The position numbers and the translations under genes were made by a program. The notes under the pieces were generated by a model. The model saw only the letters and a list, made by a program, of their open reading frames with translations, was not told the origin of the DNA and ran no database searches. Shown here piece by piece: positions 6,596 through 21,612 of a stretch of 21,692 nucleotides of DNA. Position 1 is the first letter of the stretch. Every line of letters begins with the position of its first letter. This DNA comes from a virus (lineage: Duplodnaviria > Heunggongvirae > Uroviricota > Caudoviricetes). Location of the stretch: the IMG/VR virus record IMGVR_UViG_2541047885_000001; one strand, given 5' to 3'.

Positions 6596-9312
6596 TATTT
6601 AGATCCCCACGAAAAGTAATCTTTAAATTTGTCCATACGTTCGTTATGCAGGCGCTGATACTGCTCATCCAGAGCGCGATGCTTGTCTTTGAAGTTTCGT
6701 ATAGCCTGTCCACGCATAATTTCTTCCTGCTCGTACTGCTCCCGTTCCTGCTGCATTTTCTTATAAGGTTCCCAATCTTCTAGTGATGGTTCCCAACGCA
6801 TAGGACGCCCATGTTTGTTATAAAACGGCTGGACCCGATCGATGCCATTTTCATCCTTAGTTCTTACCATAATGGCGTAATCACCATTACGGGGTGTTAA
6901 CACGTCAGGGGTTATGAATAATTCGCCATTAATACGACTCTCAGGGGTTTTTGTCTCAACTACAGGAGCATTACCTGACGTGATCCCAAGCAACGTCGGA
7001 CTGGTTGTTATAATCTCTTTGCGCTCACCGTACATCAGCCGTTCTTTTTCAGCTTTCCACTGCGCCGCCTGCCAGCCTGACGGCCCATATTGATAAAGCG
7101 CCTCCGGTGCATATTTCATAAACTGCGCTTCTCCGTTGACCTCGCTGATACTCCAGGTGCGGGCTATCTGCTGGTTGGTCATTTGCTTCGCTACGTCAGC
7201 GTTACCACCAGCAACGCGGTAGTTAATGTCATACAGCGTCTGATAGTCATTACGGAATCTAGCTGCTTCCGGCGTCTGGTCATCCGCAGACGGATCCCAA
7301 CGGAACCACTGCGCCATATTGCTGACAGCAGAATTCATCGCCTTGCTGCGATCATTTTTGTACTCTTTTGAACTCTGCGTTGATGCCAATTGAGCTTTAA
7401 GAGCATCGGTCTGGTTGTATGTAAGGTTCTGCGCCTGCTCGATAGCCGCATCAGCAGACATGCCAGAATCAGTTAGTTGCTTAACAGTCAGATAAAAACC
7501 CTGCATATCCTTCGGCATATTTCCAATAGATGCATTGTCTGTTTCATATAACCGACTAAACAAATTCGCTGCATTTTTAACCACTTCCTGATTGCTGGAT
7601 CGGGATACTGCTGAAAGCTGCGTGATGACCTGCGAAGGCATTATGCCAGTCTGAGCCACAAGCCGAACAACCCCATCATGAGTGGAGACATCATTAATAC
7701 GAAAGTTCTGCGCCATTTCTGTGTAATCAGCAGCTTTCTGCATTGACTTGTTGCTTGGGTCTAATTTTTCACCTATTGTCAGCGCCTCATTGAATCTGCG
7801 TGAATCCCGTTGCGCCTGAATTGCTTCATTTGATCTCTGAAGCAATGCAGACAATTTTCCGTAAGCATCGAGTTTTAACGCATAGTGAGGATCGTTAACC
7901 TCAGGCTTCACTTTCTGCATTTCTTCTTGCTGCTGAGAAGGAGGTAAATACTGAATTGCCTGGAATATTCTCGCGTTATCAATCGCTATATCCAGTTGAT
8001 TGATTATTTTATCTGCATTTTTTCCATACCCCCTGATGATAGTCTCCTGAGCCGGTATATAATCTGGAACCTCACCGTTATATAGCTGGGCCATGGTGTT
8101 ATTAATAGCTGGCTCAAGCTGTTCTAATATTAACTTCCTTTGCTTTTCTATCTGACTATTAGCAAGGTTATCTATTTGATAAATAGTCAGCGGATCCATT
8201 CCAGTTTTATTTTTTCTATATCGGGAAAGCCACCCTTGTGTTTCTGATGGAAGATTTCGGATAAATTCTTCTTCTGATATTTCACCTTTACGTGGATCAC
8301 CGACTTTGGCGATCAGTTTATCCACGTTACCCATCCCCCAGTTATATGCTGCTCCGGTCAATATTTCGGAACCGTACTTACCATACAGTTGATTTACATA
8401 GTCACTGGCGAGCATTTCATGCTGTTGTTCGTCCGTAGGGTTGTATTCAACGCCACGTTTGGCCGCCAGTTCTTTCCCTGTGCCCGGCATTAACTGGTAT
8501 TTCCCCTGGGCCCTCTCTCCAGAAGATGTTTTCGGTCCTTCAAGAATACTACCATCAGGATTAAAATGACGATCACCTGATTCAACAAGGCGTATGGCAC
8601 GCATGTCCATGCCTCCAGAATCATTTTTCTGAAACTGACCATTTAACCATCCTTCCGGATTAGCAGCGGCATAATTCTTCGCCCGCATTTCTGTGGCACT
8701 GCGATCATCACTTTCTATTTCTTCCAGAATGCGTTCTTGTGACCATCCCCTGGCTGCTCCATATCTGGCAATGGCTACCATTCTGGAATTTCTGGCTAAA
8801 GTGGCAGTTTGCGGGTCATTCCAGGCATCCGCTTCATTTTGTATCCATAATTTTCTCGTTGCCTGATATTGCTCATCTTCATAGGCATTTGTCTGCCCTA
8901 TCTCATGTCTGAGAACTCCAGTACTGAACTGAATTTTCTGTGTTCTGGCTTGTTGCAAAAACATATTTCTTGCTGCTTCATCAGTCAATGAAGCAGCTAT
9001 TTCTTCCACATCCTGATCAAATCCAGATATGTACTCTTGCCCCTTACCAATCGCATTTTTGCCTTGTTGTGCATAAAAACCGGTTTGAGGGTTATAAAGA
9101 CGTTCATTGCTGCGCTGATTAAGCTGAAGTATGGCATCCTGAGACAATGCAACATTCGCTTTCTGCCTGGCTTCACCATATGCCACCGCATACTGATCTG
9201 CGACATTCGCCAGCACCTGACCTGCTTGAGGAACATCGAAGGTTTGAAAACCACCGGTTTGCACACCACGACTTTGCACCTGGCGTCCGGATGTAGTAGG
9301 AACAACAGGCAT
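6595..9312 (-). CDS. Internal virion protein with a lytic transglycosylase (SLT) domain (905 aa)
   Basis: Residues ~235-335 (about 8308..8610) carry an SLT-like signature: VESGDRHF, GKYQLMPGTG, AAYNWGMG. Position and size fit a T7 gp15/gp16-type core protein. Confidence 0.85.
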   Translation of the reverse strand: MPVVPTTSGRQVQSRGVQTGGFQTFDVPQAGQVLANVADQYAVAYGEARQKANVALSQDAILQLNQRSNERLYNPQTGFYAQQGKNAIGKGQEYISGFDQDVEEIAASLTDEAARNMFLQQARTQKIQFSTGVLRHEIGQTNAYEDEQYQATRKLWIQNEADAWNDPQTATLARNSRMVAIARYGAARGWSQERILEEIESDDRSATEMRAKNYAAANPEGWLNGQFQKNDSGGMDMRAIRLVESGDRHFNPDGSILEGPKTSSGERAQGKYQLMPGTGKELAAKRGVEYNPTDEQQHEMLASDYVNQLYGKYGSEILTGAAYNWGMGNVDKLIAKVGDPRKGEISEEEFIRNLPSETQGWLSRYRKNKTGMDPLTIYQIDNLANSQIEKQRKLILEQLEPAINNTMAQLYNGEVPDYIPAQETIIRGYGKNADKIINQLDIAIDNARIFQAIQYLPPSQQQEEMQKVKPEVNDPHYALKLDAYGKLSALLQRSNEAIQAQRDSRRFNEALTIGEKLDPSNKSMQKAADYTEMAQNFRINDVSTHDGVVRLVAQTGIMPSQVITQLSAVSRSSNQEVVKNAANLFSRLYETDNASIGNMPKDMQGFYLTVKQLTDSGMSADAAIEQAQNLTYNQTDALKAQLASTQSSKEYKNDRSKAMNSAVSNMAQWFRWDPSADDQTPEAARFRNDYQTLYDINYRVAGGNADVAKQMTNQQIARTWSISEVNGEAQFMKYAPEALYQYGPSGWQAAQWKAEKERLMYGERKEIITTSPTLLGITSGNAPVVETKTPESRINGELFITPDVLTPRNGDYAIMVRTKDENGIDRVQPFYNKHGRPMRWEPSLEDWEPYKKMQQEREQYEQEEIMRGQAIRNFKDKHRALDEQYQRLHNERMDKFKDYFSWGSK

Positions 9313-16008: not shown

Positions 16009-16305
16009 TCACTCCTGTTCACTGGCCTCTTTGGCCATCTTCAAATACTGTTCAGGGCAATGCGCCATAACGCGCTGAAACAGTTCCAGCGCCAGATTGC
16101 GTTGCCCCTCATTAAATGCCATTGCCATAGCGTCCATCGGTGAGATAGCGGAAAACACACGGCCTTTCTCCAGCACCGACCAGACAACGCGACGCCCCTG
16201 TTCACTGCTCATGACAAAGCAAATGTCATCAATTTCACGCTGTGCCATGTCACGTTGCTTACGGGCGTTTTCTTCTTTCAGTTGATCGTCTTCGTAATCT
16301 GTCAT
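16009..16305 (-). CDS. Hypothetical small protein (98 aa) between portal and scaffold
   Basis: ATGA overlap with the portal stop (16302..16305); its stop is 2 nt before the scaffold ATG. Confidence 0.6.
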   Translation of the reverse strand: MTDYEDDQLKEENARKQRDMAQREIDDICFVMSSEQGRRVVWSVLEKGRVFSAISPMDAMAMAFNEGQRNLALELFQRVMAHCPEQYLKMAKEASEQE

Positions 16306-17981
16306 TGTGATTGCCCACCCTGACCACTAACTGCATTCGCCATAGCTGACAAAACACTCGGATCCGAAGTTTTAGCTTCGCTTAGCGTCTTGGCACCCTG
16401 TGCCGCCGCCATCCCCATCGCCATCATTTGTTGCTGCTGTTGTTGCTGTGCCCGTTGCTGGCGAGCCTGCTCAACCTGTTCCTGCGGAACAATGACGGTT
16501 GGAGACACTCCGGACATATCAGCGAATGCATCGATCGCCTGATCAACGTTGAGTTTGTCGAGAGCTTCTGGTTTCGCTTGCGCAAGTTGACCAATGAAGT
16601 TAACCGTGGACGCCAGACTGGACAGGCCGATAGACTTCTGCGCCTGAGCCATGACGGAAATGTATTCGACCTTCAGGGGCATACCTTCCATCGCGTCAGG
16701 CGGTGGCGGCAGCATGTTTTTACGCACCATCATCGAGAAAGCGCGGTCAATGAGAGGATTAAGACATTCGTCGTTCAGACGCTCCAGAACCGGCCCCAAC
16801 ATCAGAAGTTTTTCTTCTTTCATTTCGATCACCGCTTCAACAGGCATCGAGCGGGTATTGATGTTCTGCAACATCATGAACAGATCGACAAAGTAGGCGC
16901 TGTTAATGATTTGACGGGTGTCCTGAATGTCTGCCACCAAATCTGCTGTACTGGGGTTAACCAGATAAGCAGGCCTGAAACCATCCTGACCAGTAATCTG
17001 ATCGATATACGTGATGTCGCCAGGAAGAAGGGAGGCACGCTGATTCTTGAGGGAAGTCGGAGCAACCATCGGCGGATTGGTGGCTTTATCAATCAACTGC
17101 GACTTGCGCTTCTGGAGAAGCTGCAATGCCTTAACAGGTCCAAGCGCCAGCATACCCGGGCATGATGATCCATAAACATCTTCGCCGTTAACTTCCCAGC
17201 GCGGAGCCATAATTGGAAACTCATCGAATCCGGACTCACGCAACAACTTGTCGTTATCGCCACCAACCTCGTAATAAACCGATTTGAATGGCTTGTTCTT
17301 GCTATCCAGCTTCGATGTATCGCGGTCAATGTTCGGGTAAACCGAATGCATCACTTCAATCCACTTCTCGTAGGTTCCGCTTTCCCACATGCTTTTTACG
17401 GATTCGCTGACGTTATTTAGCCCGAACTCCTGAACAAGCTGACGAACAGTCATAGAGAACTTGCGAAAACAGGTGTCCACACTGCCACGAGGTGAGTTAG
17501 CCAGGTAGTAACTGCCTATCGGGAATGGCATTGTGCGAATGATGTCCTCGTCATCCTCCAGCACTGCCATTGCACCAGTGCTGTATGTGCCGAGGCTTCC
17601 GTATAACTGCGGCAGCGACTGATAGAGATTCGACTTATTGAACATATCGTTCATGCGGTTCTGCACCGCCTCAAGCCACAACTTAACAGGGCCATAATCC
17701 ATCATTTCAGGATCTGGCGTAGCCAGGCGAAACCACGGACGCGCGGGGCTTGTGATGCCTGACATCATGCCGCTGGCGAGAGTGCGCGCCGCCATAGTCC
17801 CGGTCGAATCAATAATGCGTGTATTGCGTCGATCGTTACGGTTGACCTCAGAAGTCAGAAAGCGGGAACCACGCGGGTTGATGTAATCACTCAACTCGCG
17901 CCAGTGCGGCTCGAACGACTGACGCTCGCTTTCAAGTTGTGCGAACTGTTTGTTCAATCGCTCTTTAGTTGTTTCCGCCAT
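16302..17981 (-). CDS. Portal (head-to-tail connector) protein, 559 aa
   Basis: Size and position typical of a T7 gp8 / epsilon15-type portal; RBS GGAG 8 nt upstream of the ATG. Confidence 0.9.
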   Translation of the reverse strand: MAETTKERLNKQFAQLESERQSFEPHWRELSDYINPRGSRFLTSEVNRNDRRNTRIIDSTGTMAARTLASGMMSGITSPARPWFRLATPDPEMMDYGPVKLWLEAVQNRMNDMFNKSNLYQSLPQLYGSLGTYSTGAMAVLEDDEDIIRTMPFPIGSYYLANSPRGSVDTCFRKFSMTVRQLVQEFGLNNVSESVKSMWESGTYEKWIEVMHSVYPNIDRDTSKLDSKNKPFKSVYYEVGGDNDKLLRESGFDEFPIMAPRWEVNGEDVYGSSCPGMLALGPVKALQLLQKRKSQLIDKATNPPMVAPTSLKNQRASLLPGDITYIDQITGQDGFRPAYLVNPSTADLVADIQDTRQIINSAYFVDLFMMLQNINTRSMPVEAVIEMKEEKLLMLGPVLERLNDECLNPLIDRAFSMMVRKNMLPPPPDAMEGMPLKVEYISVMAQAQKSIGLSSLASTVNFIGQLAQAKPEALDKLNVDQAIDAFADMSGVSPTVIVPQEQVEQARQQRAQQQQQQQMMAMGMAAAQGAKTLSEAKTSDPSVLSAMANAVSGQGGQSQ

Positions 17982-17995
17982 TTCAATGACTCCGG

Positions 17996-18202
17996 TTACT
18001 GACCAAGCAGCGTTTTACCGCTGGTATTAGCGGTTGATGTGTCACCCTGAGAACCGGTAAGCAGCGTAGAACTACGACCAGCAGCAGCGCGACGGCGACG
18101 AGTTTCTTCGTCGCGGGCATCAACAACGGCGGCATCCTGCTCCTGTGGTGCTGCCTGAACTTCTGGTGTTGCAGGCACTGATGGTGAGCTACCCATGCAC
18201 AT
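17996..18202 (-). CDS. Hypothetical small protein (68 aa) directly upstream of portal
   Basis: ATG at 18202 preceded by GGAGTCATTGA-T; the same 11-mer precedes the portal ATG. Hydrophilic, Ala/Arg-rich. Confidence 0.45.
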   Translation of the reverse strand: MCMGSSPSVPATPEVQAAPQEQDAAVVDARDEETRRRRAAAGRSSTLLTGSQGDTSTANTSGKTLLGQ

Positions 18203-18222
18203 ATCAATGACTCCGTACGCAA

Positions 18223-18300
18223 TTAAATTATTACCAATTTAACCACACATGATTTATTTATCGTAGGTAGTTGACATTTAACGCACAAATTATTACCTTT
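18223..18300. promoter_or_regulatory. AT-rich promoter-like region at the edge of the terL-portal insertion
   Basis: Plus strand: TTGACA (18271..18276), 17 bp, TACCTT. Minus strand: TTGTGC, 17 bp, TACGAT. Confidence 0.3.
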
Positions 18301-19011
18301 CAGGTAACCAAAGAGTTCATTCCGGTTACTAACCTGACTGGCTTGTCGTTAAATTGAACAGGTGGAGTGAGCTTTTATTTTGAGCAGTACGGCGTATGGC
18401 ACATGCGCCGATAGCGGTCTGGATACGTTTAAGGGGCACCCTCCCTTGCTCGGGCAAACGAACCAGGTAGCCGGAATGTGCAAGTCGAGCGGTTTTATTC
18501 CGCGCACGGGGATTCACCATCCCGGCGATCAGGTGTGACACCTCGGAAGAGACGAGGATGCAACAGGTAAGAGCATTGAGATTGATCGTCGTTCCTGGGC
18601 CCAAGGTCTGCTCGAAGTCAGTGCTCTTTCCGTTGTGGTGAATGCGCAGGCTGATGCGCACCCCGTGAACGTGGGGGAATGGGTAAGGCATAAGCCTGAG
18701 TTGGAAGACAAGCTGCGTGAATAGCCGGAAGTCAGGGTTACCCAACAAACTCAGTGAAAATCATGACGCATATCCTCTTGAGAGAGTGGCAGCTAACACT
18801 GAGCATATTTCAAGCCGGAGATCAGCACCGGCCACCACAACCCAATCACGTTAGGACCGTGATACGGCAGTACCAGGCAATGCGTGTAGCTTTGGCGGTG
18901 GCAGTTCTCCTTCTTCTGACCACCGCCCTTTTTACAGCAGAACGCCATTCCGATGACGTTGCGCTGTAAACCCTGCATCACCCGCCAAGGAAGGCACTCC
19001 GTTGATCATTC
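18300..19011 (+). ncRNA. ORF-poor ~700-nt region; candidate structured RNA or long regulatory leader (function unknown)
   Basis: No convincing ORF on either strand despite ~55% GC; bounded by a consensus -35 upstream and an intrinsic terminator placed 12 nt before the next RBS. Several GC-rich hairpins visible. Confidence 0.2.
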
Positions 19012-19036
19012 GCCCGGTTCGTCCGGGCATTTTTTT
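19012..19036 (+). terminator. Intrinsic terminator or attenuator immediately upstream of the 110-aa gene
   Basis: GCCCGG-TTCGT-CCGGGC hairpin followed by a T7 tract, then AAGGTGA RBS and the ATG at 19049. Confidence 0.6.
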
Positions 19037-19048
19037 AAGGTGAAAATC

Positions 19049-19381
19049 ATGAAAGAGAAGACTGCAGCTGAGCGCTATGCCGCAGCTATCAATGCCGCGA
19101 TGGCGATTGTAAACCTGCGTGAAGAGATTAAAGATCTCCTTGCAATTATCCATAACAACCTGACATGTACAGAGTTGCTTGGCGGTCAGTACAACGGTGA
19201 GGCGGTGAAGGAGGCATTTAAAAATGCCGAGGTAGGAATAATTCCAGCAAACTATGTCAAGGCTGAATGTGTGCTCCTAAAGGCACGAGTGAGTCTGCAT
19301 GAAGATCCTGGTAATCTCGGTCGAACTGCAATGCGTTACGTGATAGACGAGTCGAATGCCAAACACAATCTACCGAAATAA
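19049..19381 (+). CDS. Hypothetical protein (110 aa), cargo gene inserted between terL and portal on the opposite strand
   Basis: ATG at 19049 with AAGGTGA 5 nt upstream; in ORF-track frame 18953..19381; followed by the palindrome and a terminator. Confidence 0.7.
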   Translation: MKEKTAAERYAAAINAAMAIVNLREEIKDLLAIIHNNLTCTELLGGQYNGEAVKEAFKNAEVGIIPANYVKAECVLLKARVSLHEDPGNLGRTAMRYVIDESNAKHNLPK

Positions 19382-19385
19382 CACC

Positions 19386-19397
19386 GTGACATGTCAC
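19386..19397. repeat. 12-bp perfect palindrome GTGACATGTCAC, copy 2 (preceded by CACCGTG)
   Basis: Identical to 1129..1140; lies 5 nt after the stop of the 110-aa gene and just before a terminator hairpin. Confidence 0.8.
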
Positions 19398-19401
19398 AAA
19401 C

Positions 19402-19428
19402 AGCCAGCCTATGAGCTGGCTTTGTTTT
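19402..19428 (+). terminator. Terminator hairpin between the converging 110-aa gene and terL
   Basis: AGCCAGC-CTATGA-GCTGGCT stem-loop followed by TTGTTTT. Confidence 0.5.
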
Positions 19429-19471
19429 ATCCTCACCAGAGGATATCAACGATATTATCCCCACCAGCGGA

Positions 19472-20947
19472 TTAAGCATAGGGATCGTAATCTGTGATGG
19501 CCTTGCCTTGCTGGTTCTGCTGACCGGGAATTCGCAGACGCTTCGACACAGGGAACGCAAACGTCAGCAGTAGCGCATCGCCTTTACCCGGCGAACGCCC
19601 AAGCCGCTCCTTGATATCCTCCTTCGGTTCGATAACGATTTTACCGTCCACGCGAACTTTGTACTCTGCCGCCGACAGGTCGTCTGCAGTTTCCTGGTCA
19701 TCCAGCATGCCGCCCAGCCTCAGCCATGTCTTACATGAGTTGAACATCTCCCCACGCTTGTTAAGCATCTGCGGGTCAGTAGACGCGCCACCGAACGGAA
19801 CAAGTTGCCATGTACGACCCCAGCCGTCACCGATTGACTTCAAACCGGTTCCGTAACCGAAGTCGATGAACACCGCGTCAGCCTGATACTGGTCTTCAAA
19901 GTCAGCGATACGCTTCGCCATAATCAGATCGTCGGTAGTCTTGTTGCCAGTCCACAGCACCTTACTGTGTAGCCCCTGCCGCAGGTATATCACAGCGTCA
20001 TCAACGCCGGAGTATGCCGGGTCAACGCCGATTATCACCGGAGCATGTGCAACCTGCGCAGCGGTTACCACCAGTTTCATTGCCTCGTCAGTAAGACCGG
20101 TAGGGATAAACTGCAATTCAGATGCATCAGGGAATATGCCACGCACACGGATTTTAACGAAGTCGCTATCTTCCCCGTAGTCATCAACCCATTTCTGCAA
20201 CTGCTGTTTGTTGGTGCCTTCCACCGTCCTGCTGTCAATCTGCGCAGTTTTCCAGCGGTGTTTGTATTTGCGGAAACATTCACGGAAACGCCCGGTGTTA
20301 CGTGTAGGGTTTCCGAAAGCCACCCAGATAATCTCAGTGTCTTCGTCCGTTAGCGCACCCTCGGCAACTTCCCACACCAGATCCGCAATGTTCGACGCTT
20401 CATCAAATACCACGATGATGCGTTTACGCTCGTTGTGTAGTCCGGCGAATGCCTCAGTGTTGTGCTCAGACCAGGGGATTGCGTCAGCTCGCCACCGCTT
20501 GTCGTGCCCAGGGTCATTGCTGTACATCGCGGTAGCGGTACAGGTAAACCAGTCTTTCGTGATAGCAAGGTTTGACCACTTGATAATTTCCGGCCAGGTC
20601 TTCGTTCGTAGCTGGTTGTCGGTGTTGGCGGTCACCACGACCTTACAATCCTCGCAAGTGGACATGCCCCAGTTGATCAGCATTGAGATGAATGCGGATT
20701 TACCAATACCGTGACCAGAAGCACGTGCCAGCATAAGCGGCTGATATCGCGTCTCTGGATTCTGCAGGTGATCACGTATCTCTCGGAACGCATCAGCCTG
20801 CCACTGACGTGGGCCGGTGGCATGTGCCAGTTCAGTCCCCTCTTCCCCCCATGGGAACGCATAGAGGGCATAGCCAAGCGGATCGTGAGTGAACCCTGCA
20901 ATATCCTCGATTAACTGCTCTTCAGGAGATAACGCTGTATCTGTCAC
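19472..20947 (-). CDS. Terminase large subunit (491 aa)
   Basis: Walker A-like ARASGHGIGKS, Walker B-like IIVVFDEAS, and a C-terminal nuclease-like region (IIGVDPAYSG); ATGA overlap with the terS stop. Confidence 0.92.
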   Translation of the reverse strand: MTDTALSPEEQLIEDIAGFTHDPLGYALYAFPWGEEGTELAHATGPRQWQADAFREIRDHLQNPETRYQPLMLARASGHGIGKSAFISMLINWGMSTCEDCKVVVTANTDNQLRTKTWPEIIKWSNLAITKDWFTCTATAMYSNDPGHDKRWRADAIPWSEHNTEAFAGLHNERKRIIVVFDEASNIADLVWEVAEGALTDEDTEIIWVAFGNPTRNTGRFRECFRKYKHRWKTAQIDSRTVEGTNKQQLQKWVDDYGEDSDFVKIRVRGIFPDASELQFIPTGLTDEAMKLVVTAAQVAHAPVIIGVDPAYSGVDDAVIYLRQGLHSKVLWTGNKTTDDLIMAKRIADFEDQYQADAVFIDFGYGTGLKSIGDGWGRTWQLVPFGGASTDPQMLNKRGEMFNSCKTWLRLGGMLDDQETADDLSAAEYKVRVDGKIVIEPKEDIKERLGRSPGKGDALLLTFAFPVSKRLRIPGQQNQQGKAITDYDPYA

Positions 20948-21543
20948 TGATTGCCATCCTGACGTTCTTTCAGTCTCTTCCTGGCTGCCGCTATGCGATC
21001 AGCAATTGTCACATTCACATTAACATCCAGGCGTTCTTTGAATGCGTTGACGTCGACGTGCTTACCAATCAGTTCGAGGTTCTTCACCTTGTCAGGCCAT
21101 TTAATTTTTTTGAGGATGCCAACCAGCTCTTTCTCGTCTCCACGGCCTTCGAACATGTCGGCCAGTTCGAAACCTGTCAGGTACTGCCGCCAGACCTTAG
21201 GCCATTCCGAGACCGGCTTGATGCTCATATCGTCGTTGAGAATGTCAATCACGTCCATCTGGTCGATCTCCACCAGGCGCATGAGAACGTAATCAGCACT
21301 GACGCGCATTCGTTTGTTGCGCTCCTCCATCAACTCGGCAATCCGTTTCTGAATGCGTTCATCGCGCATCATGACACTGGCTTTAACTGCCGCTGTATTT
21401 GGGGAGAATCCTGCATTAATCGCAGCCTGAGTCTGGTTTTCAGGCGTTTTGATGTATGACTGGCAATAAGCCTCCTGCATTGCTGTTAGTGGCTTAAATT
21501 GCGTTGATTTGCGTTTATAGGTTTTAGGTTCAGCAGGCATCAT
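20944..21543 (-). CDS. Terminase small subunit (~199 aa from the ATG at 21543/21540; the ORF track extends to TTG 21588)
   Basis: Immediately upstream of and coupled to terL; N-terminal region has a terminase small subunit-like pattern (LTAMQEAYCQSYIKTPENQTQAAINAGFSP). GGTGG lies 5 nt before the second ATG. Confidence 0.8.
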   Translation of the reverse strand: MMPAEPKTYKRKSTQFKPLTAMQEAYCQSYIKTPENQTQAAINAGFSPNTAAVKASVMMRDERIQKRIAELMEERNKRMRVSADYVLMRLVEIDQMDVIDILNDDMSIKPVSEWPKVWRQYLTGFELADMFEGRGDEKELVGILKKIKWPDKVKNLELIGKHVDVNAFKERLDVNVNVTIADRIAAARKRLKERQDGNQ

Positions 21544-21550
21544 AACCACC

Positions 21551-21579
21551 GTGGTAATAGTTACCGTTGTGGTAATAGT
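21551..21579. repeat. Direct repeat GTGGTAATAGT x2 (7-bp spacer) in the terS 5' leader
   Basis: 11-mer at 21551..21561 and 21569..21579, between the upstream terminator and the probable terS start. Confidence 0.5.
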
Positions 21580-21584
21580 ACCAT

Positions 21585-21612
21585 GCAAAATAAAGCCGCC
21601 ATAGTTGGCGGC
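21585..21612 (-). terminator. Intrinsic terminator upstream of terS
   Basis: GCCGCCA-TAGT-TGGCGGC hairpin; on the minus strand it is followed by TTTATTTT. Confidence 0.5.

Follow-up and report, generated by a model that had tools for sequence, protein, structure and literature searches.

What is a small plus-strand gene doing between the terminase and portal genes of a phage whose large genes in this region are all read from the other strand? In this study, we addressed this question in a stretch of 21,692 nucleotides of viral DNA (hereafter the window, meaning the whole stretch), which derives from a phiV10/epsilon15-like (Uetakevirus) prophage; the phage is temperate and was found integrated in chromosomes of E. 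coli. All large ORFs between 3581 and 21588 were found on the minus strand, whereas the gene under study, which encodes a protein of 110 aa, is on the plus strand. The region around this gene is 99.9% identical to E. coli BCE049, and both sides of the gene are 95-98% identical to phiV10 and its relatives. The 110-aa version of the locus is rare: of 5426 complete E. coli genomes, just 2 contain it. The gene, the variable slot that contains it and the genes that border the slot are as follows:

20944-21588, minus strand: terS (PF03592)
19472-20947, minus strand: terL, the large terminase subunit gene and right border of the slot (ORF; annotated as terminase/PacB-like in phiV10 and by PGAP)
19049-19381, plus strand: the 110-aa gene, a member of the phrog_27507 family and the variable payload of the slot (ORF and translation; identical to WP_001561052.1)
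18203-19471, strand-neutral: the whole variable slot, from the 68-aa gene/portal to terL
17996-18202, minus strand: a conserved 68-aa gene at the left border of the slot (phrog_831)
16302-17981, minus strand: the portal gene, also at the left border (PF12236, E 1.6e-187)

The ORF runs on the plus strand from an ATG at 19049 to a TAA at 19379-19381, and the PGAP annotation contains the same ORF. Comparative analysis revealed that it is a genuine gene under purifying selection. Against a 73%-identical homologue from K. oxytoca, dN/dS was approximately 0.09, with dS being saturated. A close (word-indexed) search with the protein returned 15 clusters with 61-98% identity, and an exhaustive profile search for the family returned 45 clusters among 50%-identity representatives. 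Nearly all members have 100-115 aa and align end to end, and both the length and the start codon of the gene are kept down to 22% identity. A 142-aa version starting at 18953 was rejected as an artefact, because homologues begin at the ATG at 19049 and the extension holds a terminator hairpin. The G+C content of the gene (46.5%) is lower than that of the flanking genes (52-54%), and the pI of the protein is about 6.8, so there is no obvious surplus of basic residues.

The sequence-only reading of this DNA had described a gene opposite in strand to the late operon, with its own RBS and a downstream terminator, wedged between terL and portal. The ORF, the RBS (AAGGTG, 6 nt before the ATG at 19049), the terminator (a hairpin at 19402-19421 with a U-rich tail on the plus strand only) and the minus-strand setting were all confirmed, and thus its coordinates and description were correct. 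The position between terL and portal also holds; however, approximately 850 nt of non-coding, RNA-like sequence and the 68-aa gene intervene on the portal side. Two minus-strand ORFs in this part of the window were tried and rejected. One of them (18793-18981, 62 aa; PGAP WP_064733031.1 in strain C6) overlaps the first hairpin and the leader listed below, is unsupported by homologues, had no match in Pfam or NCBIfam, and is probably spurious. Its position is similar to that of phiV10 p04. The other (18932-19153) overlaps conserved hairpins and has no homologue support.

Comparison with related prophages established that the 110-aa gene was not freely inserted: it is an allele in a slot where the ORF is replaced precisely between a leader and a terminator that the alleles have in common. 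In pairwise BLAST, identity to phiV10 was 97.6% up to 18577, 80% over 18921-19043 and 95% from 19377 on. The elements that surround the ORF within the slot are:

18389-18565, plus strand: a conserved structured-RNA candidate at the 5' end of the putative plus-strand unit, outside the gene (identity to P1; RNAalifold)
18894-18933, plus strand: T1, an intrinsic-terminator-like hairpin and U-run (GGCGGTGG...CCACCGCC CUUUUU; fold -19.6 kcal/mol, z -5.7)
18921-19043, plus strand: the conserved leader 5' of the ORF, 80% identical to phiV10, where it precedes Acb4 (BLAST breakpoints and alignment)
19012-19036, plus strand: T2, an intrinsic-terminator-like hairpin and U7 that abuts the RBS of the 110-aa gene (terminator scan; -13.1 kcal/mol, z -3.4)
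19037-19042, plus strand: the Shine-Dalgarno AAGGTG (from the sequence)
19377-19471, plus strand: the conserved 3' flank, comprising the stop codon, palindrome, terminator and spacer to the terL stop codon (BLAST breakpoint at 19377)
19386-19397: a perfect palindrome, GTGACATGTCAC, 5 nt after the stop codon and before the terminator
19402-19421, tail to 19431, plus strand: the downstream terminator hairpin, followed by TTTGTTTTAT (-12.3 kcal/mol, z -3.4; U-run on the plus strand only)

We aligned nine 5' flanks and eight 3' flanks from prophages with differing payload genes. On the left, the alleles converge at the ATG and have the leader, the hairpin and U7 run, and AAGGTG in common; on the right, they converge at the TAA, with the stop codon, the palindrome and the terminator in common. 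Thus, it is the ORF alone that is swapped inside a fixed expression cassette. The AAGGTG is common to most slot alleles regardless of the ORF, and so is the 3' flank. The KY171 variant has diverged near the ORF on both sides, in the Shine-Dalgarno (nine-variant alignment) and in the 3' flank as far as the terminator stem; L006, the most distant locus, has only the start and stop regions in common with the other alleles. The palindrome is kept in most alleles, carries 1-2 base changes in L006 and is not retained in KY171. The palindrome may serve in protein binding or in recombination. Both the T1 stem and the downstream terminator stem are kept paired by compensatory changes, from G-C to A-U relative to phiV10 in the former and from AGCCAGCC/GGCTGGCT to AGCCCGCC/GGCGGGCT in the latter (3' flank alignment). 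Relatives whose terL and portal are 95-100% identical hold other genes at the position of the 110-aa gene, which most Uetakevirus genomes lack. The allele is also mobile: L027 and a Pseudocitrobacter locus (L046) encode a 98%-identical protein although their portal and terL show just 80-89% identity.

The plus strand upstream of the ORF is rich in RNA elements. The structured-RNA candidate is located 5' of the tRNA-Arg position and has approximately 80% identity to the trnI-ban interval of phage P1 (L008 1501-1669); it is also present in L001 (1986-2177), in L002 (7495-7602), and in K. oxytoca and other Uetakevirus prophages. RNAalifold analysis of seven sequences gave 37 pairs, 10 of which show compensatory double changes, and the invariant G-U pairs favor the plus strand. 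The candidate had no match in Rfam at E<=1. A tRNA search of the window with ARAGORN found none: 18578-18920 lacks the tRNA-Arg that phiV10-type phages and most of the E. coli relatives have at this position, and the segment that replaces it is a mosaic. The stretch at 18561-18660 recurs with 100% identity in about 48 Klebsiella phage records, where it precedes tRNA-Arg/tRNA-Met.

The U-runs of T1 and T2 are on the plus strand only, and the tandem is retained by every slot allele in the E. coli, Klebsiella and IMG/VR loci; in the divergent L006, T2 is unrecognizable. The stretch of approximately 100 nt between the two hairpins could be a small RNA or an attenuator. T1 weakly resembles the 3' part of DicF (Rfam score 25.7 bits; gathering score 48). 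The Rfam matches to DicF and RyhB, both below their gathering scores, were rejected as reflections of the terminator hairpins. A scan of 17900-19600 found no sigma-70-like promoter. With no promoter detected and with T1 and T2 placed before the RBS, the ORF seemingly depends on plus-strand read-through or anti-termination. A weak TTGACA-17-TACCTT was noticed by eye at 18272-18300 on the plus strand, under the scan threshold and 750 nt 5' of the gene, and its -35 is kept as TTGACT in K. oxytoca prophages. It is possible that this candidate promoter, judged from its sequence, would drive the whole RNA/tRNA/ORF unit.

We then considered which other genes occupy the slot. Alleles at the same position and on the plus strand were found in sister E. 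coli prophages, and the identified ones belong to two families. Acb4 (anti-CBASS 4), of the PF13876 N4 Gp49/Sf6 gp66 family, has its founding member in Bacillus phage SPO1 and is characterized by the sequestration of cyclic oligonucleotide signals as a homo-tetramer. A PF13876 allele is present in phiV10 (gene p03) and most E. coli Uetakevirus prophages (E 6e-35 and 2e-30); this is the Acb4 family of anti-CBASS sponges (PMC11722364; PMC12265669), and Acb4 binds 3'3'-cGAMP (PMC11722364). The second is a Tad2-like allele of 98 aa in E. coli PD23 (L038:1903-2199), which matches PF11195 (E 4e-24) and also solved Tad2 structures (E 1e-12 to 1e-15). The feature of Tad2 (Thoeris anti-defence 2, PF11195/DUF2829) is gcADPR sequestration, and PF11195 represents a family of anti-Thoeris sponges (PMC12265669).

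The 110-aa gene shares with Acb4 the exact slot, strand, leader, RBS, stop codon and terminator, and Acb4 is likewise a short single-domain protein (75-124 aa); with Tad2 it shares the slot (in PD23) and a similar size. However, the 110-aa protein is unrelated to either of them in sequence and fold. It had no Pfam family at E<=1, and no match to PF11195 in Pfam or to solved Tad2 among PDB sequences with either of the profiles described below; hhalign of the family profile gave a probability of 0.1% against phiV10 Acb4 and 0.15% against Tad2, and the fold search of the PDB library was negative. At least two further families in the slot are orphans, phrog_4846 (139 aa, L039:1003-1422, E. coli E22) and phrog_3163 (115 aa, L040:1099-1446, E. 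coli JNEC-KY171), and neither had a Pfam or PDB match. Since they occupy the same slot as the Acb4 and Tad2 alleles do in other prophages, both may be regarded as additional anti-defence candidates. In L006, a C-terminal fragment of phrog_4846 (7801-7992) lies immediately 5' of a 109-aa member of the phrog_27507 family.

The family itself had not been recognized from the sequence alone, and our remote homology and structure searches gave only phrog_27507 (PHROGs v4; function unassigned), which matches the protein with an E-value of 3.5e-75 over residues 1-110 of 110 and also matches all 44 aligned relatives. No match was found in Pfam or PADLOC-DB 2.0 (both at E<=1), in NCBIfam or among PDB sequences, the last of which were searched with profiles of 12 and 44 sequences, and a Pfam scan of all 44 members gave scattered single-member chance matches only. 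The hhalign probability of the family profile was <=0.2% against each of Acb4, Tad2, Lockin and the two orphan alleles. The sequence-only reading had set its proposal against homology to a structural or packaging protein; such homology was looked for and none was found. A tblastn search of 50,697 GenBank phage records with the protein yielded no match, and the gene is known solely from prophages and metagenomes. Searches for related loci gave nothing in IMG/VR with alignments A5 and A8, and the corresponding genome scan gave only Pseudocitrobacter faecalis and one doubtful match. No literature mention of WP_001561052 or phrog_27507 was found.

An AF2 model built with 12 close sequences had a pLDDT of 57, and the 44-sequence alignment was used instead, with a pLDDT of 95.9 and a pTM of 0.80. 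The model contains a helix of 32 residues (6-37), short helices at 40-45 and 50-59, strands at 63-67, 71-76 and 79-82, and a C-terminal helix at 92-102. The protein is thus confidently predicted to be a small soluble alpha/beta fold, in which an amphipathic N-terminal helix is followed by an alpha-beta-beta-beta-alpha module; fold searches of the model against PDB and BFVD gave no match. We infer from the model that the 32-residue helix would drive homo-oligomerization. Among the 44 members, which share 22-98% identity, Y10 and E42 are present in 44 of 44, H84 in 41, T39 in 38 and R9 in 36. The invariant polar residues suggest a ligand or catalytic site, and conservation across these sequences suggests that Tyr10, Glu42, His84, Arg9 and Thr39 would form it.

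The positions of homologues vary with their distance from the 110-aa protein. At identities of at least 64%, all 21 loci are antisense between terL and portal. At 41-43% (L033 and L034), a related phage carries the gene 5' of terS and on the terS strand; at 36-44%, it is found in lambdoid nin regions beside NinB, Dam, NinX, NinF or NinG; and at 22-30%, it belongs to co-directional arrays of small early genes. Thus, the question raised by the sequence-only reading, whether homologues are always next to terminase genes, is answered in the negative: only the close clade, with every one of its 21 loci, shows this position, whereas more distant members are in early and nin accessory regions. Several distant members were on contigs too short to show their surroundings. 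One member with 30% identity (P0054; L014 and L015) is 66 nt 3' of a Lockin gene (PDB 9p8l, E 7e-20) and three genes after Tad3 (PF25185, E 1e-29), all in one co-directional early gene cluster. Both Lockin (PF26760) and Tad3 are anti-Thoeris proteins; both, however, are without homology to the 110-aa family, and Lockin showed no similarity to it in sequence or fold. This neighborhood was seen in one phage lineage only, on two contigs, and of the approximately eight distinct contexts that lie outside the Uetakevirus slot, it is the only one with known anti-defence neighbors. In another, unrelated phage, a 28%-identical member heads a six-gene plus-strand island (L050 6001-7980), which is antisense between portal/Mu-F-like and scaffold/capsid genes; its five co-oriented neighbors have no Pfam matches on record, and four of them were scanned without a PHROG match. 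The common theme of these positions is accessory or hot-spot loci.

Because the identified slot-mates, Acb4 and Tad2, inhibit nucleotide-signalling immunity, we propose that the 110-aa protein is a counter-defence factor. We give an even chance to the reading that the gene is a phage counter-defence gene of a new family. Two independent associations point in this direction, namely allelism in the slot with Acb4 and Tad2 and adjacency to Lockin/Tad3 in an unrelated phage, and the small size, mobility and invariant polar residues add to it. The slot argument is one of guilt by association, and two of the other alleles are orphans as well; compared with known anti-defence proteins, slot-mates included, the 110-aa protein showed no sequence or fold similarity. 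Immune-signal sponges are short, usually <200 aa, and reside in phage accessory loci together with other sponges (PMC12265669). The 110-aa protein has this size and this kind of location, being allelic with Acb4 and Tad2 and having a homologue that adjoins Lockin. Sponges are also defined as homo-oligomers with multiple positively charged pockets at the protomer interfaces, which bind or remove a nucleotide signal and so cancel the cognate defence (PMC12265669). For the oligomer and its pockets, the 110-aa protein offers indirect hints in its amphipathic 32-residue helix and its invariant Y10, E42 and H84. A more specific proposal, which we put forward only tentatively, is that phrog_27507 is a new-fold family that neutralizes nucleotide immune signalling (CBASS, Thoeris, Pycsar or type III CRISPR) by sequestering or cleaving the signal via a Tyr10/Glu42/His84 site. 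The anti-defence option, which the sequence-only reading had listed among several, is the one now favored, given the Acb4 and Tad2 genes in the slot of sister prophages and the distant homologue that adjoins Lockin near Tad3.

The Uetakevirus slot is a plus-strand unit antisense to the late operon and dedicated to accessory genes. Its order is the structured-RNA candidate, tRNA-Arg (in most relatives, absent here), two terminators, the leader and RBS, the exchangeable ORF, and a terminator. Recombination in the fixed flanks would swap the ORF exactly from ATG to TAA. Under the counter-defence reading, the protein would be made from read-through or anti-terminated plus-strand transcripts, during infection or induction. 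After homo-oligomerization through the N-terminal helix, the site formed by the polar residues might bind or cleave an immune signalling molecule, or dock onto a defence effector.

Other explanations were weighed against this reading. First, the gene might encode an early accessory protein unrelated to immunity, acting in nucleic-acid metabolism, replication or recombination, or binding RNA via a dsRBD-like alpha-beta-beta-beta-alpha module, which we consider somewhat unlikely. Proteins with the dsRBD-like alpha-beta-beta-beta-alpha fold (Loquacious, R2D2, TRBP and PACT D3) were placed among the closest known systems.

Second, the late operons of lambdoid/HK97-like phages can contain additional genes, termed morons, that bring their own signals, and the morons of prophages often have defence or exclusion functions rather than counter-defence functions. 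The sequence-only reading had seen a moron-like antisense gene here, and this view held up: the gene has its own terminator (19402-19431) and is replaced by other genes in near-identical, collinear relatives. It resembles morons in being an extra gene in a late module, on the opposite strand, flanked by terminators and atypical in G+C content. However, it differs from them in lacking a detected promoter and in lying behind two terminators in a tRNA/RNA unit, and the slot, far from reflecting a single insertion event, is conserved in the genus and has its ORF replaced exactly. A lysogenic-conversion or defence moron would be made in the lysogen and would benefit the host, for example through superinfection exclusion, or would be a small toxin or abortive-infection factor. 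Such a function agrees with the classic antisense, terminator-bracketed layout, with a G+C content below that of the flanking genes and with a temperate phage integrated in E. coli chromosomes. Nevertheless, we regard it as unlikely: the identified slot alleles are counter-defence sponges and not defence genes, the protein had no PADLOC match, the distant homologues are co-directional in early/nin operons and beside Lockin/Tad3 rather than in lysogeny modules, and the gene has no detected promoter of its own.

Third, a packaging or head-assembly accessory protein would suit the position between terL and portal and the family member inside the head module of another phage (L050). This is highly improbable and has effectively been refuted, since the unrelated proteins Acb4 and Tad2 occupy the same slot in phages with 95-100% identical terL/portal; in addition, in both cases the gene and the late genes lie on different strands, homologues are found in early and nin regions, and most Uetakevirus genomes lack the gene. 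Finally, that the ORF arose by chance on the antisense strand of an RNA-rich spacer and makes no functional protein has next to no probability despite the approximately 850 nt of non-coding, hairpin-rich sequence around it, being refuted by the dN/dS of 0.09 with saturated dS, the length and start conserved down to 22% identity and the AF2 pLDDT of 96.

Exchangeable anti-defence or accessory cassettes in phage hot-spots are known; as far as the literature searched shows, the 110-aa family, its fold and the Uetakevirus slot have not been described. Counter-defence proteins of phages are found family by family, each showing how immune signalling is blocked, and new families are useful for phage therapy and strain engineering. 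The 110-aa gene is a clean candidate in this respect, with slot alleles from two validated sponge families, a novel predicted fold and three invariant polar residues. If the more specific proposal on nucleotide immune signalling is true, the terL-portal slot would be a plug-and-play anti-signalling locus, and phrog_4846 and phrog_3163 would be further undiscovered inhibitors. In addition, the slot could be of use for discovery, as a listing of its alleles across Enterobacteriaceae prophages would give a short catalogue of candidate inhibitors.

Two further observations were made beside these results. Elsewhere in the window, an Rfam match to sar RNA (RF00262) at 2125-2192 on the plus strand scored 45.2 bits against a gathering score of 43, which implies a P22-type immI/antirepressor antisense-RNA control region in the prophage. 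In an IMG/VR contig with an identical 110-aa gene (L028 6330-9049), about 2.6 kb of extra sequence lies between the gene and the terL match, perhaps because the slot or terL has taken up an insertion.
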